NCBI GenBank assembly: GCA_028716965.1
Contig: JAQUOV010000002.1
Coordinates: 132,472 to 196,471 of the forward strand
Length of the DNA stretch: 64,000 bases
From: Candidatus Omnitrophota bacterium
GTDB lineage: Bacteria > Omnitrophota > Gorgyraeia > Gygaellales > Profunditerraquicolaceae
Direction of reading: 5' to 3'
Below, one piece after another: positions 3,336-27,617 of the stretch (position 1 is the stretch's first letter; each line of letters starts with the position of its first letter). The notes under the pieces are model-generated. The model was not told the origin of the DNA. It saw only the letters and a list, made by a program, of their open reading frames with translations, and made no database searches. The translations under genes were made by a program, and so were the position numbers.

Positions 3336-6061
<2,726 letters not shown>

Positions 6062-6063
6062 CT

Positions 6064-6900
6064 ATGGAAATAATTGCGCCGGATAAATCTAACGAAATTT
6101 TATATCCCGTTGCTGTCTTTAAGGAATCCTGGGGGCTCTGTATTAGGAGTTTAAAGAAATTAAGCCTGATTTACATAATTTTTAATCTGCCGATAATTGC
6201 TTTTTACTTTACTCCTGTGGCAGAAAAAATGCAGGCAGGGAAGCCAAGCCTTACAACCTTTCTTTTATTTTTCGTTCCGGCTTTGACCGCCAGCATTTGG
6301 TGTCACATTTCTCTGCTGCTGGCGGCAAAGAAAACGGTTGGTTTTGAGGATTATGAGATTGGGGAAAGCATAGCCCAGACAAAACCTTTATTTTTTAAAT
6401 ATCTCGGCACGGTTTTGCTCATCTCCCTTTTTATATTGGGCGTTGCTATGTTTAGCAGCTTGTCTGTCGCGCTGGCCTTGACGCTGTTGTTAAAGATAAA
6501 TAAGCTGTTGGCGACGCTGGTTTGCCTTGCTTTGGGAATAGCGATTATTGCATCAGCAGTTTATTTAATTATTCTCTGGTCTCTTGCTGCTACAGTTTGC
6601 GTTCTCGAGAACCTTCACCCTATAGCGGCCTTAAAGCGCAGCACCGCTTTAGTTGGAAACCGGGTGCTTCCGGTAGTATTTGTATATTCTTTGTTCGTGG
6701 CCGCATGTATTATATGTTTGATTCCATTTGTTATCGCTGGGGCAATCTTGGGCATAGGTGGCAATGCTGTTGAGGCAAATCAGGCAGGTTCAATATACAG
6801 CATGTTTATAAATATTGTCTTAATCCCGTTCTGGTCCGTACTTACAGTAATGTTGTATAAAAAATTACAAGGGGCATTAGAAACTAATGTATACGCGTAA
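6064..6900 (+). CDS. Hypothetical polytopic membrane protein
   Basis: 278 aa with several long hydrophobic segments. It is wedged between gyrB and gyrA and overlaps the gyrA start by 14 nt. Confidence 0.5.
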
Positions 6901-12002: not shown

Positions 12003-12088
12003 CTGCTCTATTTATCCCAATTTGTAAGCCCCGCTCATTAAGAAAACGCTTTCTTAAAACCCCTCAAATACCCTTGTAAACACTTACC

Positions 12089-12094
12089 TATAAT
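12089..12094 (+). promoter_or_regulatory. Candidate -10 element (TATAAT) upstream of the giant gene
   Basis: A perfect TATAAT lies about 54 nt upstream of the 12148 ATG, with no good -35 at 17-nt spacing. There is no obvious Shine-Dalgarno before the giant ORF. Confidence 0.3.
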
Positions 12095-12147
12095 ATATAC
12101 TTTTTCTAACACGGCTGATAAACCGAATCTTAAAAATAACTCAAAAA

Positions 12148-15100
12148 ATGGCATACAGGCTTAGAAAAATCTTATCTTTTTTCCTTTGCTTTTTACTTAT
12201 TTTCCAGCAATCAGGCTTTACCCAGATTGCCGGAGAGTTGGATATTTCAGGCCGCTTTCTTGCCCTGCGCAACAGTTTTATCCAGGATAGATTCCGCCCA
12301 ATACATTTAAGGTATCTTTCGTACGATCCAAGTATTAACAATTTTAGCCTGCTTTTAGACAAAGGGGATTTTCTGAAGGGACTGTCCCCGAAGGATAAGG
12401 CACCCAAACCTATCGGATGGTTTGGTGCCCCGCCTTCTGCGGGGGTTGTTCCTGAAGAGATCTTGCAACAAGAAACCAAGACCCTGCTAAATTATTTTTT
12501 TATCGGCATATCTTTGCCAAATGAGGCTTTTTGGGTAAACCTTCGGCCTGATTCGCCCAATAATATCATAGATCCGGAGGTTGCCGAAACAGACGTGGGG
12601 CGTATTTTGTTGGAAGCAGACCTGCAGCTTAAGAAAGATACAGCAAGTTTTACCTCTCCCCAAACTCCCGAAGGTAAAGATTATTGGGATAAGTTATATA
12701 AAAAAGCAGAAGAACTATACGGTTCCGAAAATATAACCATACCTACGTTAACCCGCCCCTGGATTGTTCCGGATGAGATCATTATCAGGGAAAGTTCCGA
12801 TAATGCTTATATTTACAAGGCTACTCTTAAAGTTATGCTTGAGCAGGATTATCTGAAGGATTCGTTAGTTTATAATTTTACGGATGGACGCTCCAAGGCC
12901 TTAAACGAGTATTCTTCAGAGCTTATCCGTAATACCATTATCCCCAGGCTAACCAGAGAGATTAACTCTAGTAAAAGGTACGCTCCCTTGAGGCAGGTTT
13001 ATTATTCTTTAATCCTTGCCCAATGGTTTAAACAGAAATTCTACGGCAAATCCGGGCTGTATAGTTATCTTATAGACAAACATAATCTTCAGGGTTTAGC
13101 TTCCAAGTCGCCCTGGTCTAAAACAGATTATTTCAATGCTTACAAAGTTTCTTTTGAACAGGGGGAATACAATATTAAAGAGCCACGTTACACTCCTTTT
13201 GGCCAGGTTATCAGAAGTTATATGAGCGGAGGGATCCAGTTAGGCGGTCCAGAAGCTATAAAGCAAATTATCCACGCCAAACCAGCAGGCAATAGCTCCC
13301 CGTTGTTTTTTAGGAATAATTATATTGTTCAAGGGTTAGCAAAAGTCAGCAGCGCAATAGACGCTCCATATCACATAGAAGCAATAGACATAAACAATAT
13401 TATTCAGGGAGCAACAAACTCAAAACAACAGCCATCTAGTTCGCCGCTGCAGAGCGATGCTCCCGCGGTCTCCCTGGTTGCGCAAAAAAAGCCAGCCGCC
13501 ACTAGTCCTGCGCAGCAGCCAGAAAAAATTAGCAATATATACGGTTTAATCTCGGCTTTCAAGAAAGCGTTGTTCCAAAGAAAAGAACGCGCGCGTTTTT
13601 ATGAAATAAGAAAGCAGTTAATAAAAATGGGCTTTAGCCCCGCTGTTTATGAACAGGCTCTTGAGTATGCATTAGGCCTAAAGGATGCAGAGATGGCCTT
13701 GCAAGCTATCTCTGGCTTGGAACAAAAGTTTAGTACTGGCGAAGGCAAGCAGTCTGCTGAAACCTTGAAAATAATTGTTGTGTTGGCGGAACCGCAAATC
13801 GCCCAATACGCCATTAACTCCTTAGCGGTAGCGTTAACTATTGAATCGACTGATCAGAGCGCTGTATTTGCGTTAAGAGAAATTGCTAAATGCCCATTCA
13901 TAGAACCGCAAATCGCCCAATACGCCATTAACTCCTTAGCGTCGGCATTAGTTACCACTACTGATTTCGGCTTCAGCGAAGGCATTGCTTATGAATTATT
14001 TCATTTAGCCCAAGGAGGAAGAAAAGCCGTTCGAGATAAAGCCCTTTCTTCGTTAGAGATGGCCTTAAGTACTCCAGGGTTAAATCCCAAGATTTATGAA
14101 CGAATAGCTAAATTATTTGAAAGTCTTATCAGATATGCAAAAAAAGATACTGCGCAGGAAGTTATATCTTTTTTGGAATCAATTAGGGATATAAAGGCAT
14201 CGGAGCTAGACCCCGTTGCATTTAAGGTCATGGGTTATGCCTTAGCTAATACAGGTTGGCAGAGACGGGGTCTTGTTCGCAGAACCTCTATTTTTCCATT
14301 GGAGAAAGATGGTCTGCTAAAAAAATTAGCAATAATTATTCATCCTGTAGAAGATAATAATGGTGCTTTCAAAGATATTGAGAATAAGGGCAAGCAGTTA
14401 GAGTCTCGAGGATACCGAGTTATAATCGCACGCGTTGATGGAATAGATGCGCTCTTGGCAGCATTAAAGGCTGCTACCGCACAGCAGAGAGCTTCAGTAA
14501 TAATGATAGGCGGGCATGGGAGTCGTACTAGTATACAACTTGGATTCGGGGAACCCAATTCAAAATTAACAATTAGGGATAAGCAATTAAAAGAAAAATT
14601 ATCAGCCGCGGTCGGCACATTAGAAGAGAACGGCATTATTATTCTAGATAGCTGTAGTACAGGAAAAGGCGGGAGGATATTTTCAAATATCGCCCAGCTA
14701 TTCGCGGATATCTTCCCGCAGGGTTTCGTCTTTGCTTCTCCTTATCCTGTAGTAGCAGAAAAGGGGATCAAGTTGGTTTTCAATAATAAAAACGAAGTAA
14801 CCGCAGTAGAATTTCTCCATGCATATTGGCCGCATGGCTACTATAATTCTGCAGCTAAGAGGGATCTTAATTCTCCCAAAAATTTAGCAATTGCAGAGAA
14901 AGTTCGGGATCCAGAGGATTCGCAAAATGGTTCCGCCAGCTCGCCGCAGGAGACAAAGATTGCGAATAATCAGACATCCTCTCCAATCAATAGTTCAGAG
15001 ACACTATTAGATCCAAAAGATGTATTGAGGCCAGATGGCTGGAGGAAGCTAAAATTAATGGTGTCGTTTGTGAGGGAATTAATTAATTCGGGGATAGAAT

Positions 15101-18100
15101 TTGATGATGGGTATTACCGTGGCCTGTTTGACAATGATATATTCTTAAATGAAGCGGAGAGGGTTTTTGGGGAAAGAAGGTTAATTCCGGCCAGAATAGA
15201 TACCTATATTTATAACCAGGCTACATCTGTTGAACAGGCTTTAATAGAATTGATTGCTAATGCTCAGGATGCCGTGGTAAATGAGAAAAAGATAGGCAGG
15301 TTCGGAGTAGGCGCTTATCAGATGTTCCGGGAACTAAAAAGCCCGGAAGACACAATTATAGTTACTACGTCCACAGATGGCAGGCTCGGCTGGAGAATAA
15401 CTTTTAAGCTTATTGAAGGAGATCTGTGTTGTAAGACAGAGCAGCTATCAGAAGGGATAGAAAAAGGTACCACGGTAGCCGTCAATACAAAGCTTTCATC
15501 CGAAGATGTGCAAGAACGTATCAACTATATAAAGAATAAGCTGCACACCAATGCCAGGAGCAAAATTACGGTTAATGGCATCTTGATCAATAATCCCGAA
15601 CAATACCATTACATTAACGGCGATAATCTTGTTATGCCTGACATAGAGCCGGTTCAGGTTGAGATTACAGGAAAGGGGTATGTAGTAATAGACAAGGGAA
15701 GCGGGATGAGTCCAAAGACCATTTGGGAGAAGTTTTTGGTTCCCAAGGGTACTACTAAGGCCATTGAAGGTAAGCCGGCAGAAAAAAGTTCAGAGATCAG
15801 GGAAGAGACGCATTTGTTCTATTCAAATATAATATCCGGTGAAGGGCAGGGAAGAGTAGCTGTTCAAATCAGCGGTGTAAAGAATATTGAAGTCCCGATT
15901 TTCGGGATGAATATCCCTGAAGAGTTGATCATTGAGCTTCCGCATGATGCATGGCTTCCGGAGTCAAGAGATAAAATCGCCATGGACAGCGTTACAAGGG
16001 AGGGGTTGCTTGAGGTAATGCGTAAGCTTACTTCTCCCCAAAGAAGCGATATAGCCAATAGGTACGCTTTAATTAACGGAGTAGCTTCATTATTAAGGCA
16101 TATTTTAAAGGACAGTGAAGATAAGTCATTATTGTATGAACTTAGAAGGATGTGCAGCGATTATATACAGGCTGAAGGATTTGGAAAGATATTCCTGCCG
16201 AACAGAAAAGAACTCGCTTTGTTACTTCTTTCTCCTGAGCAAGAAGTAATATTTTTGGATGAGCAGATGTTTTATTTTCGCCCTAGTAATATACCGAGCG
16301 TGGAGAAAGTAAGGGATTTTGTTTCTGCGGCATATGAATTATATATTGGAAACCTGGATGATCCGGAGGAAAGTAATATATATATTGAAGGCAGCTATCC
16401 GGATGGCAGAGGATGGATTATTTTGGATAGAAAGGTCTGGGAAAAGCATAAAGCTGATCCGGCCTGGCTTAATGGATTCTTGAATTTTAGTATTGGATAT
16501 GGAGATGAAGGGAAAAACTTTGGCACTATTATAAAATCTTCGGCGGGAAAGGTATCTTCCGGGGAAGCAGGTCTATCTACGGACCAATTATCTTCGGGGC
16601 CCAGCATCGGCAAAAAAGGGTTTAAAATCAGCCAGGAAGAAATAGATGCCCTGAGAAATGATTTGATTTCCAGCAAGATGATTAAAGAACAACTGGATGA
16701 TTTTGAAGAAAGGGACGTAAATTTTATTATAAAGATAGCTGAAGAGTCAATTGCCGCAGGGGAGATTAATAAGGGCAATATAGATGAAAAAAGAATTAAA
16801 TTACATAGTTGGCTTGCATTGCTCAAGGATTTAAAGAGGTCTTTGCCTGAGGGGATGTTTAGCGAGGCATGGCTGCAAAAGGAACTTTATCAGGTGAAAT
16901 TTAATATTTTTTCTTCCCAAGAGATTATTTCTAGCCCCGAAGTTGCTAACGGAAAGTTGTATTTCTATATTACGCGGTTTGGCGATGAAACTGTCCATTG
17001 GACTACATTTGAAATAAATAAGCAGGGAACGGTTATCTCTTTTGAAGGTGCGCGTCCGGTATTTACAAGCCAACATATATATCTTATAGAAAAAGATAGT
17101 AATCTGCATAAAATATCAATAAGGAATAGCGGTGAAAATAAGATTATTCTTGAGAAGGTAGTTGGAGAGTACTTGGAAGGATCAAAAAACGAGAATCTAC
17201 TAGCGCTTGTACAAGAAGGAGAAATCATTTCAATTAAGATCATTTCCGGAGAGAATGTTGCAGAATTCTGCCGTCTGCCCGCACAAGAGATGGCTGGTAT
17301 GTTGTCCGAAAAACCTTCTGCGGTAGTATGTAACAATAAGTATGTGGTATGGTTTAGCCATTTCGGTCCCCAAATGATATTTAAGGTAAATTCCTCCGGA
17401 GATATGCAACAGATTAAAATCAAAGGAGTGGACCGGATTAAGACCATAGCAATATTCCCAAACGGAAATATTGCTATTGCCGGGCATAAGAAAACGTCTT
17501 TCCAGGATGATTTCCTTAATAAATACAGCGCGTCAAGCTCGCTGAAAGCGGATTACTTCTCGGGCATAAACAGAAAGGCAGAAATTATTTTTGTCGATGA
17601 TCATGGGAAGACGGATGAGTATTATGTCCAGGATGAGGGTATTTGGCAGAAGGATGATGCGGTATATTTTCTTAAGGATAAAGGATTAGTACGCCTTAAC
17701 CAAAATGGGGAAAGTAAAATGTTTGCCTTGCCGAACATCGACCAAATACTTGGAAGTAAGAAAATAGATTCCTTGGTATTTTCCGGAAAATACATTTATT
17801 TAGTTATTGCTGGCAGGGATGTCCCTTTGCCCGGAACAAACCCGTTATACAGAATAGAAGTTGATAAGGAGGAAGCAAAGGAGATTACCGATGGTTCGTT
17901 GTCCCATACATTGATTACCGCAGGGGAACAGTCATATTGCATATCGCTAAAGAAGGGCGGGAGCAGGAAAATCCGGCGCATAGAAGAAAACGGGGAAATG
18001 GTAATTATTTATAATGAATGGGATGTAAAAGCCGCAATTCCGGACGGCAATTCGCTGTTTGTCGTTCGGGAAGAAAGCAGGCAAGGCATGTATAACAAAT

Positions 18101-21100
18101 TGTCATTATACGAAATAAGTCAGGATGGCAAGGCAAAGTTTACTTATTCCTTAGAGGGTGTTGATTTGGAGTTCTGGAAGATGGAAAATGGAGAATTTAT
18201 GTTTTTAGAAGATTATGATGAGTTGGCCAGCCAGGAAGATGAGGTAAGCCTTCACGCCAATCCTTCTGAACCGTTTAGAACATTAAGAAGGGTTAACATT
18301 TATAATCAGCGCACAGGAGAGGCTGTAAAAAGGAGCGCAATATTCTTCGAAGGTTCTTACAGAAATATGGTTTTCTTAGACGGGCATCCTTTTGCGGTAG
18401 AATCTTATCAAATAACTGCCTACCCGAATCTATCCTTGCTTATTGAACAGAGAGAATATTTGAGGAAGAATTTAACTGTTCTTCAAGAAAGATACCTGCC
18501 GCAATTGTTCGGCTTATTGTCTGTGTTGAGGCAGAATGAAAGGGAGCGACTTTTGCAGTCTTTGGTTACTCATAAACAGTGGATGCCGGCGTTGATTTTC
18601 TTGTCCCCCGAAACCATATTGAAAGCCGGAGAAGGTATTGAACAATTACGCCAAATTCTAGATGACGTGGTTTATAAGGCCAAGAATATAAAGCAGATCA
18701 GAGAAACGTTTAAATTTATCAACTTTATATTTAGCACCATTAAAGACGAAAAGATAGCTTTACGGATTACAGGAAGATGGTGCAAGGTTTTCTTAAAGAA
18801 CCCGGATTTAGCAGAAGTAATAGCCGATAAAATGCAGGAGAAATTTGATGTACCGCAAGATGGATTTATTGAAATGTTTGCACGTAGATTTGGCATGGGA
18901 ATGAATGCCGGGGGAGTAAGTACGGGGAAAAACCCGTTAGAATTTTATCAGGATTCAAAGGATCTGGCTTACCTGCCTAGCGAGGTCAGATTATATTTAG
19001 ATTTCTTAGTCAGTGAAGAATTAATGGTCCCTGTATTCTTATCTGAAGATAGGTTTTCCGGAAGAAAAACCAAAGCCGAGATAAAGGGGGTTGATTTATC
19101 AACCCTAATCCGCCTGCGTGAGTTATCGCCAGATACCATCCTGCAGCATCATGATGTGCAATGGGAAGATGTGGTATTGGGGGTCTTGGGCTTGAACGGC
19201 TCTGACATACAGGGGATCAGGAGGGATATTGCCGGGGCGGTAAATAGCCAAGATAAAACCCAGCAATACTGGATCAGGGAGTTGGCACAAAACGCAAGAG
19301 ATGCTATCCGTGCGATGTCGGGCATAGAAGTAAAAAGTGGATTCTTGGGACATGGGTTTTATACTGCATTTGCAGGGGGTTGCAATGAAGTGCGCATAAG
19401 AACCGGCAATGGCACATATGCCTATGAAATAGTCTTAAAGCCGAGTTATGACCCTAAAGGGGACATGGTTGACATTGCGGTTGTAAGAATGACCCGTTAT
19501 GAGAGCAATTTTAAAGGGACTCAAATACAGCGCGTGAATTATTATAATAGTACGGCAGATGAAGATGTGATTTTGGGTGTATTGTATACTACCCGCCAAG
19601 TAAAACGTTTTTTAGGAGCAATACCTTCAACGGGCGAAGATGGGGTTTCAGTAATTTACAATAATGAGTTAATTAATGAAGATGGGCACAGGAGTGAAAA
19701 TGCTGCAAGGGTTATAAAGATAGGAAATGGCGTTACACAAACGCCCAATAAAGATGGCTATTACGAATGGGTTGTTAGTATTACCGATCCGGCAGGAATG
19801 GATTTGCATACGATTTTAAACAAGCTTCTGCCTCCTGATGTATCGGGCAAGCCCGCGCAAGTGTCGCCAGCCAAGGGCGCCATAGGGGCAAACTTAGAAT
19901 CAAGTTTTAGTAAAGATAAAATATTGCGTGTTACGGTAGATAGGTTGTATGTGGATGATGTCGACTCAAAATATACCGAACTTGTCCCGCAGGATATCCG
20001 CCAGGTTTTATTAAAAAGAGGCTGGAATATCAATTTTCCCCAAGGCACGCCTGTTACTAGAACCAGGATAGGCGTAATGGATAGTCAATATTACAGGCCT
20101 TGGATTGCCGCCTTGGCTTTAAGAAGCGCCGTGGTTTTATATCTGAACGAAGGCATTCCTGAACTGGAAGGCTTAATTCCAAAGGACTATATATATTCTA
20201 ATTCCAATGCTATCCGAGTATCGCCAGATATCCTTGAAGACGCCGAAGCGATAAATAACGGTATGCCGGAAAAAGTTGACTTTTCAAAATACAATAATCC
20301 ACATTTGTTGGTGCAGTTGTTTACCGTGATTAAAGTAGCGTGGAAGGAAGAGCGTATCTCGCTTTGGGAAATTAAACAGAGAGTTCTTGAGGAGTATAAA
20401 AAGACTGCCGATAAAGTTAGCCTTGAAGGTATATTGCCCCCAGGCTTGCAAGGTTTACGCGATAGAGCAGAATCTTATATAACGCAAAGCATAAATAAGC
20501 GCAGGGTTGATATCAGTTTTTTGATGCAAGAGCCCATTATTATTGCCTTTCAAGAATTTGTTAACATATTGAATCGGTTGATAAAAGTAAACAATAAAAC
20601 TAATTTTGTCTGCGATATAGGCGCTCCTTACAGTGCTTACGCCAGTGCGTTTGTGCCGGCAGAAGGGGCTATTACATGGAATCTTGCTTATTATGAATCT
20701 ATCCTCCAAGAGCTTCTTAATTTTATATCCACTGGGGCCTTAGATGGAAACTTCTTGAAATTTATTGAGACTTATATCCATGAATCTAGCCATACGGTAG
20801 AGGGAAGTTACCAGGAAAAATATAAAAATGAGTGGACGCACCAGGCAGCCAGAAATGTCGGCGGGGCTTTCGGTTGGATTATGGATTTATTGTATGGAAG
20901 ATTGCTTTCTAACATGGGGACCCCTGAAGAGTTCCGGGAAATGTCGAAAAAAGAATTAGAAGAAATGGACTTTACCATTGAGGCATTAAGGGAATCATAT
21001 GAAAAAGTCAGTAACTACATAGACCAACAAACTCCCCCCATAGGTCTCTCGACATTAGAAAAAGTAGAATTTAAGCAGCCTGCCGCTTCGCCGATAATAT

Positions 21101-24100
21101 TAAAAGAGTCTTCAAACATCTCGAATCAGCCTATAGATACAGGTCGGCGCAGATTTATTCAATTACTCGGTTCATTCGGATTAGCGAGCCTCATCGTACC
21201 AGTTCAAACTCAAGCTCAAATGTTATTCCAGTGTATTATTCAGGTAGTAACTAATGTGTTAACCGATCGTGAAATTAAGCATATTAATGCGTGGGTTAAG
21301 GAATTAATAAGGCTGGCTGATCAAGGCAATGTTGCGGAATTTCAGCAACAATTTAATAGGATGTATGAGGGGAAACCAGTTAGGAAAGATGAGGAAAAGG
21401 ACCCGACCATAACAATGAACATATCGGCTCATAGCGTGGGTTTTAGTATGGAAGCGTATACGAGACCCAAAGTCATCATTCCAAATAAGCTCTTTTTATC
21501 TAAAAATTTTTATAATTGGAAAAGTGAAATCAAGCAAGAGATTGTAAAACAGATCTTGAAAAATGCTTATGGGCTCGGAGCCCCAGAGTCATTTGAGGTC
21601 CTTGAGATTCTTGATGCGATCAGCTCAAACGAAAGACTTTTTAATATGCTAGACATGGAAGAGCAAAAATTGCTTTATACATACATAGGAAAGGCTTCAG
21701 TCAGCCAGGCATTGCTTTCTACGGAGAAAGATGTGTACCCTGCTATTGGCAGATGGATAAATTCTATCCATGATTTATATGAACAGGATGGAAAGTGGTC
21801 GGAATATGTTAAAAAATATCTTGATTCGCGCTTTTGCTCTGATGAGCAGTTATATATTTTATTGAGCCGCGGAGGGTTTGAATTATACACAGGGACATTT
21901 AACCGCGTGTTTGATGAGTTGCTAAAGAGAATACAGGCCAGTGGAAATATTATAGCATGGTTAAGCAAAGTTGATTCTGCGGGAAACATGACAAGCGAAT
22001 TTTTGTTATCGTTATCCGGCAGAGGAAGGCTAATTAGGGTGATTGATGCTTCAGCCGTTAATTTGGCCCAAAAAGAGAAGATGCTAAAACAGATTTGTGA
22101 CATAATTCGTAATATTGCATCAGCTAATGCAAAAGAGTTAATGGAGGAAAAGACTAAAATGGCGTATATTTCTAATGCCGTAAAAGATATCTTTAATTAT
22201 GGCAATAGTAACGTCAATGACTATTTAAAAGAGATTATTCTGCAGATAAAAGATAATGGGGGTATATATGGAAAAGCGTTTTCGCTTATGATTATGGCTA
22301 AATTCCAAAATGTTTTTGGTTCGACCCCGGAAACCGAAGAAATAAGAGCGGTGCTTGATTATGCTGCCAGCCCTCCATACGAACAAATACTCAAGCCCGG
22401 GAAGCGCTTAGTAGTATTAGTCGACTTCGCAAATTCCGCAAAAGATTTCTTAGGTGAATTAGTAAAGCAGTTGAGCAGTAATTATGGAGGAAGATATAAA
22501 ATAAGAAGCCATAAGCCTGATGTGCAGCATGGGATTGTAACCGTCATTGGAGGTTCAATTAATGGGGTGGATATAGAATTCCATCTTGCCAGAGGCATAT
22601 CCGGAGATGAATTTAGGGAAACGATGGAATCAGGAAAGTATTCAATTATTTTCACACGGCATCATTCTTATGAAGGTGGGGATTTTCTTGGGGTAGGATC
22701 AAATACCGTAATTCCGCAGGTAATCGGGACAGTTGGGACAGGCAAGGGTATTGAAAATAACGCTTTTTCAATTGTGCTTAGCGAAGAAATCGCGAAGACA
22801 TTCTCTTCTAGAACAGGGTGGGATGAGGTTTGGCATAATATGCGCAAGCGGTTACCCAAAAGTATGGATAATTATTTACCGCCCAATCACATTTCATTTT
22901 TGATATCATACGTATTGAATGCTATAGATACGCGTTCAACAAAGATAGATCTCAACGGCGATATTCATAACAAGCAACTGATAAAGACAATAGTGGTAGA
23001 TGGTGGTTGCGGCGGGATTAATCGAATTCCATCATATTTAAATAAGTATGGTTATGCAATAGAGAAATTTAAGAATCACCCAGCGGGAAGTCCATTATCT
23101 ATTAGACAACAAGTGGTCCCTCTAGGCAGTGCAGTGGTTTCTGGTTCATCTTCACCTGCGGACAAGATAGAGAGAGGGGGGAAAGGCGTGGATTATAGGG
23201 CTCTTGCAATAAACAGGATCCGCGATGCCTTTCAGAAAGTGCTTAACCGTAATCCGGAAGATAGAGAGGTCATGGATGTGTTTGGGTTTATAGAATCCGA
23301 CCCAGACGGAACTTATTTGGAAGAAAGAACTTATTTCGCAGTGGCGGAGGCTTATGCTAACGAAATAAAAAGAGCGGGTGCCAGCTCGCCGATTGGCATT
23401 AGCAGAACCCAGGAAGAGTTGGCTTACTACCAGCAATTAAAGGAAAATGGACCGCTGGTATTTGACAAGGATAATGATAGATGGTTTTTGGATGAAGCAT
23501 GGTCAGGTTATGATTATCATAGTGTCCGCAGTTTATTAACACCAATAGATCTAAAGAATCCGGATACATTAGAAGAGGAATTGGGCAGGATAAATGCGAT
23601 TTTCACCAGATTTGATTTAAGTAAGGTAAATAGCTTTGGCGCACTTTATGCATATATAAGATGGAGATTGTCTCCTAATCGTTACGGCGCTAATTCAAGG
23701 GTTTCCGTGGAAACCCTTGTAAACATTATTGAACAGGCACGGGATGGCAAAGAAATCAATATTGCTTTTACGGATCCGTTACTAACCCAAATATTGGATA
23801 AGGCCAAAGATCTGGTTGAGACTGATAAATCCTCCAGCTCGCCGATTAAGTTGTCTTCTAGATTAGCTATGATAGAAACGCAGATATATAATCTTGAGCG
23901 GCTGCTTTTAGATGAGGAGAAGTTAAACAATGGAGAGTGGCTTGAGCTATATTTAGCTGCAGAAGGACAAATCGGGGATGAAGCACTTTATTATGGTAAT
24001 CTGAAAATTGTTCAGGATGCCAAGGGTAATGAATCCAAATTACACCAATTAAAAAGAGCCTTTGAGCCTTATGTAAAAGGGCTTTTAACCAAGGCCAAGG

Positions 24101-26769
24101 ATTTGAAGTCTGCAAGAAGCCCCTTAACCGAAGGCTTTGTGCTTAAAAATGAAAGCCGGGGTAGAATTCAAGGGTTAGCGGAGAAATGGAAGGCAGGCTT
24201 ATTAAGCGGTCTTGATTTATTGTCAAGACCGGAAATCCCCAAAGAAGAATTCAGGATTTTGGCCCGCTTTGTTAATAAATTGGTAGAAAGCGACATAAAT
24301 GCAATAAGCGTTCCATCTGATCCGGATACACAGGTAATTCTTGACACCTTTACTATAGGTTACCCCCGCGCAGAAATAGATTTTAAGAGTACGCTTGCAG
24401 TAAAGGTTTCAGAAACAGCCCCCGATAGCGGATCTAAGTCTATTGGCCTCTTAAAACTCAAGCTGGAAAAGCTTATTGAAATAATAGATGTTTTAGAGGG
24501 GGTTATAAATTCCGAGGGGGTTATTGATACAGAATTAATAACTGCTAGTCATTATAGAGAGCCAATGAAGGTTATAACACAGAAGTTTATTGATGGGGTA
24601 ATGGAAAAGATCCCGAAACCACCTGAATTATCCTCGGGTCAGATTAAACCTGCCAGCTCGCCAGCCGAGGCGAAGAGCCCTGTAGCTTCAGAGCTTGAAA
24701 TACGCCCGGAAGAAGCCGCCAGGTTATTGAGAGAGGCAGCTCAGGAGAACTATGAAAAATGGTGTCTTTTGGGCGAGCGATTAAAAGTAGCAAGGCGTAT
24801 TTTAGTCAAGGTTCCCGGACGCGATTCTCGCGGAGGACATGAATTTCCTTTGGGGGAGATAGCCGCTACCCTGCCGATATTGATCAAGGCGTTGGTTAAT
24901 TCCGGAAAAGATATTGAAGAGCTAATAGTGCAATGTGATTCTTACCCGGAATTGGTAGAAGCGATAGGAGAAGATAAGGTCAAATTAGCTGATCCTATAC
25001 AGACAACTGATGAATTAAGGTCTATCTATTCCCCGGATTTGGTTATTGATTTTGACACGGTAGCATTAGGCGAGGAGATTCCAGAAAGCACAGTAAAATT
25101 TCCAGTGGCAAGGCTATGGATGTCTTCAGATCGCCTCGGTGAAATGCGTGAAATTTTAAGATCAGCGCAATTAATCACTCCTGAATCAGGAGAGACAATT
25201 ATTAAGAGAGAAAAGAAAGAAGATGGACAGAAAACAATATTTGTAAATCCACATAGCGATAGCAATAAGAATGATAATGTAGATTCTTGGGTAGGCTTAA
25301 TACAGGAGCTTGTCTCAAAGGGCTATAAAGTTGTACTTAATTCAGGCAAAGAGGGGGGAATAGACCAGGCACATACAAAAAATATATTAGAAAAACTTAA
25401 AAAAGAAGTTGAATCTGGGGACGTGGAAGAGTTTAAAGGCAGTATCAGAGATCTTCTAGATACCTTTTTAAGTAAAATAGACGGTGTAATAACAATAGAT
25501 AGCGGTATATTCCACGTAGTACATAATTTATATTCCTTGCCCACAGTCGTTTTTATCACGTCAAATACGCTAGGATGGATTCCGCAGGAAAAAGAGGAGT
25601 TATTATTTAAGAGGATTCAATACTCAGATTTTAAAGATTATTCCACTATAGTAGCATTATTACGGAATTTACTAGAGAGAGAAAAAAAAGTAAACACAGG
25701 CTCTCCGGTGGTGGAGAATAATATAGAAAAGATAAAGAAATATACTTTAAAATCACTCAAGGATTTTGGCTATCCAGAAAATATCTTTGGTGGCATTACT
25801 AGACTAGAAAATGATAAGGCTCGCGCTCAGGTTATCAACGGCAAAGTATTCTTTAATGAGTTTTGGGTAGATAGATTGTTTGAGGATGAAATAGAACGCC
25901 TTTGCGCACACGAAGTTCAGCATCTATCGACAGAAGATCTTATAGGTAAAGGCATCAAATTAGGCGGCCTGCAAAAGGATAAAGGGTATATAGAGTTGAT
26001 GTTACGCATAGGCAGTCGATTTGACCGGATATTTGAAGAAAAAGGATCTGTGTTAACAAAACCTAAAGAATTCTATCAGGATCCATGGGAGGCATTGTCG
26101 CTTTTGCGGGGATACCAAATTTATTTGGACCAGGTAGCAAGAGGCATAAAAGTTTCTCCGCAAGCATATGAATTCATAGAGGCATTTGAAAATGATGATA
26201 CTATTTTCTTGAATCCTAATTATGTGCAACAGATTACGAAAAATTTTATACCAGAAGATTACGGGTATGAAAGGGTTACTTATGAACAGCTGGATGGAAA
26301 AGACGAGAATGGGGGAATGAGCAGTCCTTTGTTAAAACAAGGGCAAGTAAGCAAAGAGTCAGACGTTGGAGGCATTGACATGCGTTATCTGCCTAACAAT
26401 ATGGTTCTCCAGCCGATGGCGCCTAATAACTCCTTGAATCAGAGATTTATTCCTAGGGCCGCATCTTTAACTATTTCTGATAAGGAATGGCTTGAGATAG
26501 AAAAGATGGCAAATTCAGGCATAGCTCCTTCTTGTGAGCGATTAAGAGAGTATCTTTTATCTTTGCAGGACCCAAACAGCCAGATAGATAAAGTCCTTGC
26601 CTGTATTGCAGATATCCTGAGGCAGGAGGAAGAAAAAGCCTGCTGCACGGAATCTTCCTTAAAGGAAATACTGGTCCTGCTTGAATCAGGCAAGCCGGAT
26701 AAAGAATTAAGATTGGCATTAACAAAGATCCAGGTTTTAGCTAAAGAACCGCAGTTGATAGAGCAATAA
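12148..26769 (+). CDS. Giant secreted multidomain protein (4873 aa) with caspase-like, two GHKL ATPase-like and GT9-like modules
   Basis: One uninterrupted 14,622-nt ORF. The N-terminus has a signal-peptide-like stretch (MAYRLRKILSFFLCFLLIFQQSGFTQIAG). Internal motifs are a His...Cys dyad (IGGHGS...LDSCSTG), GHKL N-boxes ELIANAQDA and ELAQNARDA each with a G1-like box, a GT9 motif ITIDSGIFHVVHNLYSLPTVVF, and two HEXXH motifs. Confidence 0.85.
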   Translation: MAYRLRKILSFFLCFLLIFQQSGFTQIAGELDISGRFLALRNSFIQDRFRPIHLRYLSYDPSINNFSLLLDKGDFLKGLSPKDKAPKPIGWFGAPPSAGVVPEEILQQETKTLLNYFFIGISLPNEAFWVNLRPDSPNNIIDPEVAETDVGRILLEADLQLKKDTASFTSPQTPEGKDYWDKLYKKAEELYGSENITIPTLTRPWIVPDEIIIRESSDNAYIYKATLKVMLEQDYLKDSLVYNFTDGRSKALNEYSSELIRNTIIPRLTREINSSKRYAPLRQVYYSLILAQWFKQKFYGKSGLYSYLIDKHNLQGLASKSPWSKTDYFNAYKVSFEQGEYNIKEPRYTPFGQVIRSYMSGGIQLGGPEAIKQIIHAKPAGNSSPLFFRNNYIVQGLAKVSSAIDAPYHIEAIDINNIIQGATNSKQQPSSSPLQSDAPAVSLVAQKKPAATSPAQQPEKISNIYGLISAFKKALFQRKERARFYEIRKQLIKMGFSPAVYEQALEYALGLKDAEMALQAISGLEQKFSTGEGKQSAETLKIIVVLAEPQIAQYAINSLAVALTIESTDQSAVFALREIAKCPFIEPQIAQYAINSLASALVTTTDFGFSEGIAYELFHLAQGGRKAVRDKALSSLEMALSTPGLNPKIYERIAKLFESLIRYAKKDTAQEVISFLESIRDIKASELDPVAFKVMGYALANTGWQRRGLVRRTSIFPLEKDGLLKKLAIIIHPVEDNNGAFKDIENKGKQLESRGYRVIIARVDGIDALLAALKAATAQQRASVIMIGGHGSRTSIQLGFGEPNSKLTIRDKQLKEKLSAAVGTLEENGIIILDSCSTGKGGRIFSNIAQLFADIFPQGFVFASPYPVVAEKGIKLVFNNKNEVTAVEFLHAYWPHGYYNSAAKRDLNSPKNLAIAEKVRDPEDSQNGSASSPQETKIANNQTSSPINSSETLLDPKDVLRPDGWRKLKLMVSFVRELINSGIEFDDGYYRGLFDNDIFLNEAERVFGERRLIPARIDTYIYNQATSVEQALIELIANAQDAVVNEKKIGRFGVGAYQMFRELKSPEDTIIVTTSTDGRLGWRITFKLIEGDLCCKTEQLSEGIEKGTTVAVNTKLSSEDVQERINYIKNKLHTNARSKITVNGILINNPEQYHYINGDNLVMPDIEPVQVEITGKGYVVIDKGSGMSPKTIWEKFLVPKGTTKAIEGKPAEKSSEIREETHLFYSNIISGEGQGRVAVQISGVKNIEVPIFGMNIPEELIIELPHDAWLPESRDKIAMDSVTREGLLEVMRKLTSPQRSDIANRYALINGVASLLRHILKDSEDKSLLYELRRMCSDYIQAEGFGKIFLPNRKELALLLLSPEQEVIFLDEQMFYFRPSNIPSVEKVRDFVSAAYELYIGNLDDPEESNIYIEGSYPDGRGWIILDRKVWEKHKADPAWLNGFLNFSIGYGDEGKNFGTIIKSSAGKVSSGEAGLSTDQLSSGPSIGKKGFKISQEEIDALRNDLISSKMIKEQLDDFEERDVNFIIKIAEESIAAGEINKGNIDEKRIKLHSWLALLKDLKRSLPEGMFSEAWLQKELYQVKFNIFSSQEIISSPEVANGKLYFYITRFGDETVHWTTFEINKQGTVISFEGARPVFTSQHIYLIEKDSNLHKISIRNSGENKIILEKVVGEYLEGSKNENLLALVQEGEIISIKIISGENVAEFCRLPAQEMAGMLSEKPSAVVCNNKYVVWFSHFGPQMIFKVNSSGDMQQIKIKGVDRIKTIAIFPNGNIAIAGHKKTSFQDDFLNKYSASSSLKADYFSGINRKAEIIFVDDHGKTDEYYVQDEGIWQKDDAVYFLKDKGLVRLNQNGESKMFALPNIDQILGSKKIDSLVFSGKYIYLVIAGRDVPLPGTNPLYRIEVDKEEAKEITDGSLSHTLITAGEQSYCISLKKGGSRKIRRIEENGEMVIIYNEWDVKAAIPDGNSLFVVREESRQGMYNKLSLYEISQDGKAKFTYSLEGVDLEFWKMENGEFMFLEDYDELASQEDEVSLHANPSEPFRTLRRVNIYNQRTGEAVKRSAIFFEGSYRNMVFLDGHPFAVESYQITAYPNLSLLIEQREYLRKNLTVLQERYLPQLFGLLSVLRQNERERLLQSLVTHKQWMPALIFLSPETILKAGEGIEQLRQILDDVVYKAKNIKQIRETFKFINFIFSTIKDEKIALRITGRWCKVFLKNPDLAEVIADKMQEKFDVPQDGFIEMFARRFGMGMNAGGVSTGKNPLEFYQDSKDLAYLPSEVRLYLDFLVSEELMVPVFLSEDRFSGRKTKAEIKGVDLSTLIRLRELSPDTILQHHDVQWEDVVLGVLGLNGSDIQGIRRDIAGAVNSQDKTQQYWIRELAQNARDAIRAMSGIEVKSGFLGHGFYTAFAGGCNEVRIRTGNGTYAYEIVLKPSYDPKGDMVDIAVVRMTRYESNFKGTQIQRVNYYNSTADEDVILGVLYTTRQVKRFLGAIPSTGEDGVSVIYNNELINEDGHRSENAARVIKIGNGVTQTPNKDGYYEWVVSITDPAGMDLHTILNKLLPPDVSGKPAQVSPAKGAIGANLESSFSKDKILRVTVDRLYVDDVDSKYTELVPQDIRQVLLKRGWNINFPQGTPVTRTRIGVMDSQYYRPWIAALALRSAVVLYLNEGIPELEGLIPKDYIYSNSNAIRVSPDILEDAEAINNGMPEKVDFSKYNNPHLLVQLFTVIKVAWKEERISLWEIKQRVLEEYKKTADKVSLEGILPPGLQGLRDRAESYITQSINKRRVDISFLMQEPIIIAFQEFVNILNRLIKVNNKTNFVCDIGAPYSAYASAFVPAEGAITWNLAYYESILQELLNFISTGALDGNFLKFIETYIHESSHTVEGSYQEKYKNEWTHQAARNVGGAFGWIMDLLYGRLLSNMGTPEEFREMSKKELEEMDFTIEALRESYEKVSNYIDQQTPPIGLSTLEKVEFKQPAASPIILKESSNISNQPIDTGRRRFIQLLGSFGLASLIVPVQTQAQMLFQCIIQVVTNVLTDREIKHINAWVKELIRLADQGNVAEFQQQFNRMYEGKPVRKDEEKDPTITMNISAHSVGFSMEAYTRPKVIIPNKLFLSKNFYNWKSEIKQEIVKQILKNAYGLGAPESFEVLEILDAISSNERLFNMLDMEEQKLLYTYIGKASVSQALLSTEKDVYPAIGRWINSIHDLYEQDGKWSEYVKKYLDSRFCSDEQLYILLSRGGFELYTGTFNRVFDELLKRIQASGNIIAWLSKVDSAGNMTSEFLLSLSGRGRLIRVIDASAVNLAQKEKMLKQICDIIRNIASANAKELMEEKTKMAYISNAVKDIFNYGNSNVNDYLKEIILQIKDNGGIYGKAFSLMIMAKFQNVFGSTPETEEIRAVLDYAASPPYEQILKPGKRLVVLVDFANSAKDFLGELVKQLSSNYGGRYKIRSHKPDVQHGIVTVIGGSINGVDIEFHLARGISGDEFRETMESGKYSIIFTRHHSYEGGDFLGVGSNTVIPQVIGTVGTGKGIENNAFSIVLSEEIAKTFSSRTGWDEVWHNMRKRLPKSMDNYLPPNHISFLISYVLNAIDTRSTKIDLNGDIHNKQLIKTIVVDGGCGGINRIPSYLNKYGYAIEKFKNHPAGSPLSIRQQVVPLGSAVVSGSSSPADKIERGGKGVDYRALAINRIRDAFQKVLNRNPEDREVMDVFGFIESDPDGTYLEERTYFAVAEAYANEIKRAGASSPIGISRTQEELAYYQQLKENGPLVFDKDNDRWFLDEAWSGYDYHSVRSLLTPIDLKNPDTLEEELGRINAIFTRFDLSKVNSFGALYAYIRWRLSPNRYGANSRVSVETLVNIIEQARDGKEINIAFTDPLLTQILDKAKDLVETDKSSSSPIKLSSRLAMIETQIYNLERLLLDEEKLNNGEWLELYLAAEGQIGDEALYYGNLKIVQDAKGNESKLHQLKRAFEPYVKGLLTKAKDLKSARSPLTEGFVLKNESRGRIQGLAEKWKAGLLSGLDLLSRPEIPKEEFRILARFVNKLVESDINAISVPSDPDTQVILDTFTIGYPRAEIDFKSTLAVKVSETAPDSGSKSIGLLKLKLEKLIEIIDVLEGVINSEGVIDTELITASHYREPMKVITQKFIDGVMEKIPKPPELSSGQIKPASSPAEAKSPVASELEIRPEEAARLLREAAQENYEKWCLLGERLKVARRILVKVPGRDSRGGHEFPLGEIAATLPILIKALVNSGKDIEELIVQCDSYPELVEAIGEDKVKLADPIQTTDELRSIYSPDLVIDFDTVALGEEIPESTVKFPVARLWMSSDRLGEMREILRSAQLITPESGETIIKREKKEDGQKTIFVNPHSDSNKNDNVDSWVGLIQELVSKGYKVVLNSGKEGGIDQAHTKNILEKLKKEVESGDVEEFKGSIRDLLDTFLSKIDGVITIDSGIFHVVHNLYSLPTVVFITSNTLGWIPQEKEELLFKRIQYSDFKDYSTIVALLRNLLEREKKVNTGSPVVENNIEKIKKYTLKSLKDFGYPENIFGGITRLENDKARAQVINGKVFFNEFWVDRLFEDEIERLCAHEVQHLSTEDLIGKGIKLGGLQKDKGYIELMLRIGSRFDRIFEEKGSVLTKPKEFYQDPWEALSLLRGYQIYLDQVARGIKVSPQAYEFIEAFENDDTIFLNPNYVQQITKNFIPEDYGYERVTYEQLDGKDENGGMSSPLLKQGQVSKESDVGGIDMRYLPNNMVLQPMAPNNSLNQRFIPRAASLTISDKEWLEIEKMANSGIAPSCERLREYLLSLQDPNSQIDKVLACIADILRQEEEKACCTESSLKEILVLLESGKPDKELRLALTKIQVLAKEPQLIEQ
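13789..13941 (+). repeat. 39-bp perfect direct repeat (two copies, 13789..13827 and 13903..13941) inside the giant gene
   Basis: gaaccgcaaatcgcccaatacgccattaactccttagcg occurs twice 114 bp apart, encoding EPQIAQYAINSLA in two consecutive helical repeat units. Confidence 0.9.
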
Positions 26770-26862: not shown

Positions 26863-26891
26863 TTGACAACCCGCTTTAGAGGTGCTATATT
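26863..26891 (+). promoter_or_regulatory. Sigma70-like promoter of the pyr operon (-35 TTGACA, 17-nt spacer, -10 TATATT)
   Basis: TTGACA at 26863..26868 and TATATT at 26886..26891 with exactly 17-nt spacing. This places a leader of about 180 nt before pyrR. Confidence 0.5.
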
Positions 26892-26974
26892 TATATAAAT
26901 TAGATTAACCTTTAAGCTGGCTCTTGAGAAGCTGGCAAGGAAAAAATGAAGAATAAAGCCATGAAAAATACGAG

Positions 26975-27005
26975 CCCTTGGTAGAAAAACCAAGGGTATT
27001 TTTTT
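26975..27005 (+). terminator. Intrinsic terminator/attenuator in the pyrR leader (PyrR-type attenuation)
   Basis: CCCTTGG-agaaaaa-CCAAGGG perfect hairpin followed by TATTTTTTT, inside the 5' leader of pyrR. Additional hairpins follow (GCCGC-agga-aGCGGC at 27006..27020; CACCGGCTT...AAGCCGGGTG at 27021..27048). Confidence 0.65.
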
Positions 27006-27077: not shown

Positions 27078-27617
27078 ATGAAAGAGAAAGCTAAAATCTT
27101 GGATAAAGAAGGGGTTCAGCGCGCATTTACGCGTATTGCCCACGAAATAATTGAGAAGAATAGCGGCATAGGCGAACTTTGCTTGGTAGGCATCAGGAAC
27201 CGCGGAGTTTATATAGCCCAAAGAATAGCTGATTGTATAGGCAAAACTGAAGGCAGGAAGATACCCGTAGGCGCGTTAGATATTACACTTTACCGTGATG
27301 ACCTGGCTTTGGCCAGTGGCCAGCCGTTGGTGCGCAAAACCGAGATCGATTTTGACATTAACAACAAAATACTTGTACTTGTTGATGATGTGCTTTATAC
27401 CGGTAGGACGATCAGGGCCGCATTGGATGCGCTAATTGATTTTGGCCGGCCGAGAACAATACAACTGGCTGTGTTAATTGATAGGGGTCACCGCGAACTG
27501 CCTATACGGGCGGATTTTGTGGGGAAAAATATACCAACATCCCAAAAAGAATCTGTAGAGGTGCGCTTGCTTGAATCAGACGGCAGGGATGAAGTAGCGA
27601 TCATGGAGAAAGATTAG
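27078..27617 (+). CDS. pyrR: Bifunctional pyrimidine operon regulatory protein / uracil phosphoribosyltransferase PyrR
   Basis: 179 aa with the PRTase motif [16 protein letters not shown] and the N-terminal PyrR pattern ([20 protein letters not shown]). Confidence 0.9.

Follow-up and report, generated by a model that had tools for sequence, protein, structure and literature searches.

The window analysed here is a 64,000-nucleotide stretch of contig JAQUOV010000002.1 from a Candidatus Omnitrophota genome, and the element under study is one giant gene of 14.6 kb on its forward strand. The gene begins with an ATG at 12148 and ends with a stop at 26769; according to the open reading frame (ORF) listing and its translation, this is a single frame of 4873 codons with no internal stop. 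Since a run of 4873 stop-free codons has a chance of about 1e-152 at the base composition of the region, and the other five frames contain 154-448 stops, the ORF is confirmed as a genuine gene, as an earlier sequence-only reading of this DNA had claimed. It lies between gyrB, gyrA, tRNA-Glu, glmS and rsmI on its 5' side and pyrR, pyrB and pyrC on its 3' side, so that the core chromosomal context described by that reading also holds. Its product is identical to the NCBI protein PHT50_01915, a hypothetical protein from a metagenome-assembled genome (MAG) of Candidatus Omnitrophica, which places it in a phylum for which giant genes are reported, as that reading had stated. In the databases, the identical protein comes from one contig only, and ~190 further protein matches are nearly all proteins of 2.7-7.4 thousand residues (kaa) from Omnitrophota MAGs. 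By these comparisons the giant is a member of a very large, essentially Omnitrophota-restricted and apparently undescribed family, which we name capped cassette proteins after the two conserved ends of its members (N-cap and C-cap).

12148..26769, + strand: whole giant gene, 4873 aa, NCBI PHT50_01915
12148..12222, + strand: signal-peptide-like segment, aa 1-25 (n-region RLRK, 12-aa h-region, c-region GFT/Q; by inspection)
12148..13233, + strand: N-cap, aa 1-362, family-defining (motifs FWVNLRPD, EADLQLKKD, TRPWIVP, YKATLKVxLExD, LRQVYYSLILAQWFK, GEYN, RxYxSGG)
26329..26766, + strand: C-cap, aa 4728-4873 (disordered GGIDMRYLP at nt 26368-26394, variable spacer, five-helix Cys-containing domain at aa 4774-4860)
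12074..12101, + strand: weak sigma-70-like promoter match TTGTAA-16-TATACT, 46 nt 5' of the ATG (consensus match only)

The N-terminus of the giant consists of MAYRLRK, ILSFFLCFLLIF and QQSGFTQ, and by inspection it has the n/h/c layout of a Sec signal peptide, in agreement with the signal-peptide-like start noted before. The n- and h-regions are clear; in the c-region, the -3/-1 rule is satisfied by the family consensus G-F-A/Q, from which this copy departs with G-F-T/Q. Across the family the segment follows the consensus LCFxLIFEQxGFA/Q and is unusually conserved for a signal peptide. Judged by inspection, the positive charges before the h-region and the acidic residues after it predict an N-in/C-out orientation. 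The giant contains only one further hydrophobic segment, which is internal. No internal repeats were found in the protein and no second family member in the window. A megasynthase of the nonribosomal peptide synthetase or polyketide synthase type and a repeat adhesin were both rejected, since the protein is without any such domain or repeat.

The G+C content of the gene is 0.407, and that of its third codon positions (GC3) is 0.392, compared with 0.45-0.50 in the adjacent housekeeping genes; the earlier statement of a uniform composition was thus only roughly right. A Shine-Dalgarno sequence is indeed absent, as had been stated, but its absence is uninformative: even a loose one precedes just 17 of the 42 ORFs in the window, and we therefore rejected it as a special trait of the giant gene, this being ordinary for the genome. 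The number of sigma-70-like sites in the region is at chance level.

Conserved caps and the size of the family

The N-cap is 50-80% identical across the family, with FWVNLRPD, EADLQLKKD, TRPWI, YKATLKVxLExD, LRQ..YSL..QWFK, GEYN and RxYxSGG being invariant. Its AlphaFold model is a mixed alpha/beta domain with long helices and three beta-hairpins, the core of which has a predicted local distance difference test (pLDDT) score of about 90. Searches against the PDB, Pfam and viral families returned no match to any known fold or family. The C-cap combines the nearly invariant GG-I-D-[FLM]-R-x-L-P, located in a disordered stretch, with the five-helix domain, modelled at a pLDDT of 94-97. No relative of it was found in Pfam or the PDB, and Foldseek with the model of the C-terminal part gave only weak GT-B matches.

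These two regions are what the members have in common. In the BLAST comparison, aa 1-~390 are covered by 118 of the 119 relatives retrieved and aa ~4720-4873 by ~108, and the ~4,300 residues between the caps have mostly no or very few relatives in the same set. Both caps sit at the extreme termini in 109 of the 119. Including the giant, the motif ending the N-cap, RxYxSGG[ILVMF], is present in 109 of 120 members, and the C-cap motif GG[IV]D[FLM]R.LP in 110 of 120, with one internal copy only; the giant carries it in its own C-terminal part (aa 4741-4873). The cargo side of both caps is bounded by GG plus a hydrophobic residue (N-cap 109/120, C-cap 110/120).

To estimate the spread of the family, the N-cap profile (A1) was searched with HMMER, giving 7,743 representative proteins at E <= 1e-3, 6,433 of them at E <= 1e-30, where the counts are clusters at 50% identity. 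The giant itself, which is included in A1, scores 656.6 bits (E 1.1e-192). In all but one of the best 150 of the 7,743 matches, the N-cap stands at the very N-terminus. Species-representative genomes contain 425 N-cap loci, nearly all labelled Omnitrophota; several genomes are multi-copy, and one contig has two loci. The few other labels are probably due to mis-binned or mis-named genomes. Short N-cap proteins of 453-574 aa were considered as minimal cap-to-cap members and rejected: they are without a C-cap, look truncated and probably end at contig ends.

Junction motifs and cassette exchange

Between the caps, one short motif recurs. The pattern [AGSTM][AGS]SP occurs 12 times in the giant compared with 0.84 expected, a number reached in 0 of 2000 shuffles, and 477 times in the 120 members compared with 76 expected, with the consensus [SA]-A-S-S-P-[VLI]. 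The first of these junctions stands just past the N-cap and the last just before the C-cap, and in both structure models (N-terminal and C-terminal) the motifs sit in linkers of low pLDDT.

13435..13446, + strand: junction motif 1, SSSP, aa 430, in the disordered stretch after the N-cap
14935..14985, + strand: junction motifs 2 and 3, ASSP at aa 930 and TSSP at aa 943
21082..21093, + strand: junction motif 4, AASP, aa 2979
22363..23844, + strand: junction motifs 5-9, aa 3406, 3646, 3667, 3745 and 3896, bounding small cassettes without known family
24652..24663, + strand: junction motif 10, ASSP, aa 4169, encoded by GCC AGC TCG CCA
25696..25707, + strand: junction motif 11, TGSP, aa 4517
26317..26328, + strand: junction motif 12, MSSP, aa 4724, directly before the C-cap

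The giant uses what we call the ASSP dialect; in other members and lineages a second dialect, (A)QKDGG, takes its place. The densities of the two are anti-correlated (rho -0.42, p 2e-6), three paralogues in one genome each have DGG, and members share their dialect with the nearest N-cap relative in 49 of 50 cases. Both dialects show a codon bias. Ahead of the Pro of ASSP, the Ser codon is TCG in 43% of motifs compared with a background of 9% (p 1.5e-36), and the Pro codon itself is CCG in 48% compared with 28%; in QKDGG, Asp is GAC in 13 of 13 compared with 30%, and the second Gly is GGG in 69% compared with 22%. Because this bias holds in both dialects and conservation is confined to ~12 nt, the junctions are short G+C-rich DNA words within an A+T-rich gene. 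An extended recombination site around the junction was rejected, as the nucleotide information falls to background beyond ~12 nt. The bias may reflect recombination microhomology, a translational pause or another cause.

The segments between the junctions move. Block aa 444-961 of the giant is 77% identical to aa 1306-1819 of the relative P0004, and P0003, P0005 and P0006 contain counterparts of block aa 4170-4549 that are 76-78% identical and located at three different positions. When all 120 proteins were compared, 155 of 182 shared internal blocks were found at shifted positions, and 40% of the similarity endpoints fell within 10 aa of a junction motif, compared with 3.8% at random. The caps thus frame a freely swapped string of cassettes, the same cassettes appearing at differing positions in differing members. 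Caps, junction motif and cassette shuffling had all been missed by the sequence-only reading.

Some cassettes appear to retain a start of their own.

21139..21222, + strand: internal segment resembling a twin-arginine translocation (Tat) signal, TGRRRFIQLLGSFGLASLIVPVQTQAQ, 17 aa past junction 4, at a cassette start

This cassette, S3, begins with the Tat-signal-like TGRRRFIQLLGSFGLASLIVPV. Eleven other members have segments of the form M..RRxF followed by a hydrophobic stretch, several with a preceding Met (GMDRRTFLG..., QMTRRAFLLG...), and 5 of the 12 lie within 40 aa of a junction, compared with 7.7% at random. We read the segment in the giant as a possible fossil N-terminus of a captured exported protein, or else as a membrane segment. 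Since some cassettes still begin with Met and a Tat-type signal, the simplest reading is that cassettes were captured as whole genes.

A separate observation is that the relatives P0021 and P0049 contain an Intein_splicing domain (Pfam) and that P0013 has a precomputed internal TAT_signal match; both could be relevant to self-processing and to where the cassettes came from.

A more far-reaching proposal likens the family to an integron acting at the protein level, which captures genes in frame. The caps would provide expression, export and assembly, whole genes with their own Met and Tat signal would be swapped between paralogues and genomes at 12-nt G+C-rich words (GCCAGCTCGCCG or AAAGACGGCGGG), and the translated words would double as lineage-specific processing or pausing sites. 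If true, a tiny genome could rapidly re-equip an exported multi-enzyme payload aimed at a host. We offer this as a speculative and rather improbable idea.

The junctions could also be those of a polyprotein precursor, from which cuts at the ASSP or QKDGG motifs and at the GG that borders each cap would release free enzymes, with Tat-bearing cassettes exported alone and with the caspase-like module described below, or a protease encoded elsewhere in the genome, as the cutter. A junction that is a specific motif of 5-6 residues and not a low-complexity linker would suit this, as would two lineage-coherent dialects, which are expected if the motif co-evolves with a reader enzyme. The GG plus hydrophobic residue at both caps, the Tat-like signals 5-37 aa past junctions and the presence of a Cys/His module in the giant point the same way, and post-translational cleavage has been proposed for larger Omnitrophota giants in one preprint (bioRxiv 10.1101/2023.11.21.568195). 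However, the cleavage is a proposal only, the Cys/His module occurs in just ~6 of 120 relatives, no protease is conserved beside the family genes at the inspected loci, and a protease site would not need the junction codon bias. We therefore consider a polyprotein unlikely.

In 27 of the best 80 species-representative loci (425 loci in all), rsmI lies directly 5' of the N-cap gene, and the genes of P0071 and P0005 are both found in the frame gyrB-gyrA-glmS-rsmI ... pyrR-pyrB-pyrC. From this gene order, the giant locus is a positional orthologue in at least 27 species, vertically inherited. P0005, from a relative whose RsmI is 93% identical, has 7,391 aa, and only 17.8% of the residues of the giant are in common. 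At the nucleotide level, the flanks are collinear with the locus of a relative (L085) at 81-83% identity. Within the gene, alignment to L085 is limited to three pieces: the N-cap (72.6%), a cassette resembling glycosyltransferase family 9 (GT9; 82.5%) and the last ~300 nt. For the cassette, homology stops at 25708, one base past the TGSP junction 11, and between the aligned pieces 11.4 kb of the giant stands against 17.9 kb of unrelated sequence in L085. The interior of the gene is hypervariable, its cargo being replaced between close relatives, and exchange of cassettes at junctions would explain this fast turnover. The earlier view that the gene was not obviously horizontally acquired is thus sustained for the locus, by its rsmI linkage and collinear flanks, but it missed the hypervariable interior.

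Two further observations concern this locus. The N-cap DNA (12166-13244 against L085 10028-11058), at 72.6%, is below the 81-83% of the flanking housekeeping genes, though no other part of the family is as conserved at the protein level. This might be due, among other possibilities, to gene conversion between paralogues. In the P0071 genome, six small ORFs without Pfam match lie between rsmI and the giant gene (L001 5497-9660 and L002 988-5151, - strand); they are absent from the window, where the gap between rsmI and the giant gene is 145 nt.

Could such a gene be an assembly artefact, either a chimera of genes or strains or a run of genes with lost stops? The exact sequence does come from a single contig, and related cassettes are present in co-occurring relatives. 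Against this stand the improbability of the open frame (~1e-152), the recurrence of the same cap/junction/cap grammar in more than 100 independently assembled relatives, the collinear flanks, and shared cassettes that at ~77% protein identity are too divergent to confuse an assembler. We regard an artefact as extremely improbable.

Cargo modules and neighbouring genes

For the cargo of this copy, Pfam and NCBIfam were scanned on the whole protein and then segment by segment, profiles built from relatives were compared with PDB sequences, and Foldseek was run on the models. The whole-protein scans gave nothing above threshold, and the segment-wise scans gained only DUF5050.

13447..14319, + strand: helical cassette, aa 434-724, no family
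14320..14817, + strand: caspase-like Cys/His module, aa 725-890 (GGH790GS ... LDSC836STG)
15187..16527, + strand: Hsp90-like (GHKL) ATPase module A, aa 1014-1460 (ELIANAQDA, IGRFGVG, then IDKGSGMS...KGTTK)
16882..17919, + strand: beta-propeller region, aa 1579-1924 (DUF5050 at aa 1775-1924; weak NUP159-type propeller match upstream)
19168..20400, + strand: Hsp90-like (GHKL) module B, aa 2341-2751, more degenerate (DPAGMD for DxGxG)
20779..20793, + strand: HESSH motif, aa 2878 (motif match)
24664..25695, + strand: GT9-like or GT-B-like cassette, aa 4173-4516 (TIDSGIFHVVHN), 82.5% nt identity to L085
25708..26316, + strand: HEVQH cassette, aa 4521-4723 (HEVQH at nt 25909-25923, aa 4588)

Modules A and B, the two largest cassettes, are homologues (hhalign 99.1%, E 8e-19), and 20 relatives have the pair in this order. 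Their profile matched 137 Hsp90-family PDB sequences (HtpG, TRAP1, Grp94 and Hsp90), with a best E of 4e-6, over the N-box and both the DxGxGM...GTK and the IGxFGxG boxes. Both modules carry the boxes typical of Hsp90 (ELIxNAxDA; IGxFGxG; DxGxGM...GTK). The N-box, G1 and G2 motifs are all present in module A (ELIANAQDA, IDKGSGM, IGRFGVG), and the G1 of module B is DPAGM. The giant alone scores 11.9-14.9 bits against the HATPase Pfam profiles, where the cut-off is 25, and 5 of 11 relatives of the modules match HATPase_c (best E 2e-4). The order of the boxes is unusual, with the N-box followed directly by IGxFGxG and DxGxGM coming ~130 aa later. The modules differ from Hsp90 in this box order, and module B has lost a G1-box glycine; no Hsp90 middle or C-terminal domain was detected in the giant. 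Several GHKL modules in one giant protein are also seen in sacsin, to which there is a faint match (NF047352). Two related Hsp90-like ATPase modules are supported by this profile evidence, in line with the two GHKL modules proposed earlier, even though the giant alone stays below the Pfam thresholds. A DUF5050 (PF16472) beta-propeller, flanked by the two modules and new relative to the earlier reading, is likewise supported: it scores 32.7 bits compared with a cut-off of 27 when aa 1501-2100 are scanned alone, and 25.6 bits in the whole protein.

In the Cys/His module, His790 (VIMIGGH790GS) and Cys836 (IIILDSC836STG) each follow a hydrophobic strand and are kept in 5 of 5 aligned relatives, the Cys of P0081 being displaced by an insertion. 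The scores are sub-threshold, Peptidase_C14 reaching 17.5 bits where 21.4 are needed and DUF4347 17.9 where 24.6 are needed, and weak matches converge on CHAT, DUF4347 and RavJ_Peptidase (E 0.003-0.006). The profile of the module had no match among PDB sequences. Together with the helical cassette aa 434-724 it moves as one block, 77-81% identical in P0002, P0004 and P0007 and at another position in P0004. A caspase-like fold is plausible, not established.

The GT9-like cassette carries the DSGxxH motif (TIDSGIFHVVHN); a D-[ST]-G-x-x-H nucleotide-sugar motif characterises glycosyltransferase family 9. Its profile scores are 19.8 bits for PF01075 (threshold 22) and 20.7 bits for TIGR02193 (threshold 185, E 2e-4). 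The best Foldseek matches are GT-B enzymes, led by WecB (E 8.5e-4), with the GT9 structure 3tov at rank 26 (E 0.07); these matches are weak and come from a partly confident model. The two HExxH motifs of the giant (aa 2878 and 4588) compare with ~0.06 expected from composition. Two relatives have the HEVQH cassette with its motif intact: in P0009 it precedes the C-cap, and in P0136 it follows the N-cap directly. For the stretch around HESSH, no homologues were retrieved. No third zinc ligand, fold or family profile match was found for the HEXXH cassettes, the best being DUF5700 (E 0.055). The GT9-like, Cys/His and HEXXH calls, all below threshold, are therefore suggestive. For the caspase-like His/Cys module, the GT9 module and the HEXXH motifs of the sequence-only reading there are thus an invariant dyad, a DSGxxH motif with weak GT-B matches and two motif copies, one of them kept in relatives, but the profile scores stay below the cut-offs of the families named, and no metallopeptidase profile matched. 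Residues 3749-3895 are common to the giant and P0003, and ~1,900 aa in other cassettes match no recognisable family.

Over the giant and its relatives, the recognisable cargo classes are ATPases, methyltransferases dependent on S-adenosylmethionine (SAM), a glycosyltransferase using nucleoside diphosphate (NDP) sugars, kinases, radical SAM proteins and glycolytic enzymes.

Nine relatives (P0077, P0080, P0084, P0089, P0093, P0096, P0104, P0105 and P0111) carry runs of central-carbon enzymes between the same caps, with TIM, PGK, GAPDH, enolase, aldolase, phosphoglycerate mutase, transketolase, transaldolase and PGM as cassettes.

Such cargo could belong to a multi-enzyme scaffold on the cytoplasmic face, which would bring together activities that depend on ATP, SAM and NDP-sugars, among them the glycolysis stretches of relatives, and whose hydrophobic N-terminus would serve as a membrane tether or be a buried helix. 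The chemistry is cytoplasmic, both here (Hsp90-like ATPases, GT-B glycosyltransferase) and in relatives (methyltransferases, kinases, radical SAM, TIM/PGK/GAPDH/enolase, transketolase), and no secretion genes lie near the giant or two other inspected loci. The N-terminal charges, however, predict N-in/C-out, the h-region of 12 aa has the length of a signal peptide and not of a transmembrane helix, and the fossil Tat signals and the DUF5050 propeller point to an exported ancestry of some cassettes. In addition, signal peptides or transmembrane helices are reported in 94% of Omnitrophota proteins of at least 10 kaa, according to bioRxiv 10.64898/2026.06.07.730766. On balance, a cytoplasmic scaffold seems rather unlikely.

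Several features of the surrounding DNA are recorded here. Nearly all genes of at least 150 aa in the window (1-64000) are on the + strand, and the GC skew is positive throughout. At the left end stand gyrB, gyrA and, by comparison with L085, dnaN. Together with the strand bias and skew, this probably places the window on the leading strand, a short way downstream of the replication origin. Between gyrB and gyrA, a 278-aa ORF without Pfam match (6064-6900, + strand) overlaps the gyrA start by 14 nt and has a counterpart of equal length and position in the related genome (L085 3873-4709). Between the stop of the giant gene and pyrR (26863-26997, + strand) a sigma-70-type promoter sequence agrees with the consensus at 11 of 12 positions (TTGACA-17-TATATT, the second hexamer being preceded by TG), and it is followed by a 9-bp hairpin with a T-run at 26974-26997, 5' of the pyrR ATG at 27078. 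This arrangement looks like a PyrR-type attenuator leader; an Rfam gathering scan of the window returned tRNAs only and no attenuator match 5' of pyrR. Finally, the carbamoyl-phosphate synthase large chain (31663-33261, + strand) is half-size, with 532 aa, one ATP-grasp unit and MGS. It is also half-size in L085 (522 aa), and the L001 relative has carA and a full carB of 1089 aa.

Possible role and relation to known systems

The building plan and its evolution follow from the comparisons above, and location and activity may be proposed from them. We propose that the giant is an exported or anchored carrier of exchangeable enzyme cassettes that acts at the envelope or at a host interface, and we give this statement as a whole a probability of about one half. 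The N-terminal signal would take the chain to the Sec translocon, leaving its bulk outside the cytoplasmic membrane in the N-in/C-out orientation, as the N-terminal charge pattern and the short h-region suggest. The caps would serve as constant handles by which the protein is anchored, docks or assembles on a conserved partner; that the signal region and both caps are so unusually conserved suggests this role. The cassettes would be the exchangeable payload, working either on the envelope or where these ultra-small symbionts meet their host or prey cell. We favour this setting because Omnitrophota are described as ultra-small, host-dependent or predatory bacteria with giant ORFs of unknown role (PMC10066038). 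The junctions would be disordered hinges and also the points of cassette exchange. Since the dialects are lineage-specific, a trans-acting factor may recognise them, most simply a processing protease, and processing sites would be their most plausible function.

Several points weigh against this proposal. Most of the recognisable cargo needs cytoplasmic cofactors (ATP, SAM, NDP-sugars), which is a poor fit to the periplasm or the surface. No secretion system, protease or conserved partner adjoins the giant gene or the other two inspected family loci. Export is deduced from sequence features, junction cleavage is itself a proposal, with SSP and DGG also being simply good turn-formers, and several domain assignments are under the curated thresholds. 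The strong codon bias of the junctions suggests a role at the level of DNA or translation, for which a protein-level model has no explanation. An attractive way to ease the cofactor problem would be for the payload to reach the cytoplasm of another cell, or for processing to precede export.

By design, the giant seems most like MARTX or polymorphic toxins, with which it shares constant ends, exchangeable modules and demarcation motifs, and it is a member of neither. In the MARTX toxins of Vibrio, conserved termini frame a strain-variable effector array that is exchanged by recombination, and an internal clan-CD cysteine protease cuts between the effectors; the termini are glycine-rich repeat arrays, and secretion is by the type I system without a Sec signal. 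The giant differs in having no repeats, a Sec-like start, an unrelated cap fold, a caspase-like module in few members and a payload of metabolic or regulatory and not of toxic appearance. In polymorphic toxins, for instance CdiA and Rhs, a demarcation motif (VENN, PxxxxDPxGL) marks where the constant delivery part gives way to the variable one, and loci exchange cassettes; only the C-terminal tip varies, and an immunity gene follows. The capped cassette proteins resemble them as a multi-copy family in which a constant part meets a variable part at a short motif. Unlike them, they vary throughout the interior and have a second conserved cap and up to a dozen cassettes, and no immunity-like gene follows the giant. 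Viral and bacterial polyproteins are likewise long products of independent units split by a recurring short site, whereas in this family two constant caps enclose units that have been shuffled among paralogues, and cleavage is only proposed.

The closest published objects by phylum are the Omnitrophota giants, comprising the Archaeovorins (West-Roberts et al. 2023, bioRxiv 10.1101/2023.11.21.568195) and the 'multi-enzyme metabolic cluster' class (Nielsen & Lui 2026, bioRxiv 10.64898/2026.06.07.730766). In these texts and in PMC10066038, they are ORFs of >20 kb or proteins of at least 10-30 kaa, mostly sequence-unique, with many transmembrane helices and with secretion or pilus genes as neighbours. 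Our giant shares with the multi-enzyme class the phylum, the single long ORF, the signal-like N-terminus and the many unrelated enzyme domains, and the cargo of its family matches the repertoire given there (HATPase_c, methyltransferases, GNAT, HAD, HEAT, sugar and glycolytic enzymes). The published giants, by contrast, are described with tens to hundreds of transmembrane helices and often lie beside loci like those of type II secretion systems (T2SS) or Tad, whereas here 4.9 kaa with one internal hydrophobic segment lie between rsmI and pyrR. The caps, the junction motif, the dialects and the rsmI-linked orthologue are not mentioned in the portions of these texts that were consulted.

It might still be asked whether the giant is a short example of an Archaeovorin-type surface coat, adhesin or cell-wall-degrading protein, given the same phylum, a signal-peptide-like start and a common cargo repertoire (HATPase, methyltransferase, GNAT, HEAT, sugar enzymes). 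At 4873 aa it falls far from the tens of thousands of residues (at least 30 kaa) of that type, and its one internal hydrophobic segment compares with dozens of transmembrane helices. The N-proximal C39/S8 peptidase domains and HEAT repeats of Archaeovorins have no Pfam or NCBIfam match at E <= 1 in the giant, nor does it have an adhesin, dockerin or lytic-transglycosylase match or internal repeats. Archaeovorin loci have genes like those of T2SS or type IV pili upstream and pilZ with sugar-transport genes downstream, whereas the giant has glmS and rsmI upstream, with no T2SS-like locus, and pyrR, pyrB and pyrC downstream, with no pilZ. This origin is very unlikely in our view.

Omnitrophota, like other ultra-small symbiotic bacteria, are marked by giant genes. 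Published work covers the extreme giants; the mid-size members, with thousands of clusters, obey a simple conserved building plan. This plan makes giant genes testable with respect to the partners of the caps, the cutting of junctions, the destination of the payload and the exchange of cassettes, and the N-cap profile lets annotators recognise the family whatever the cargo.

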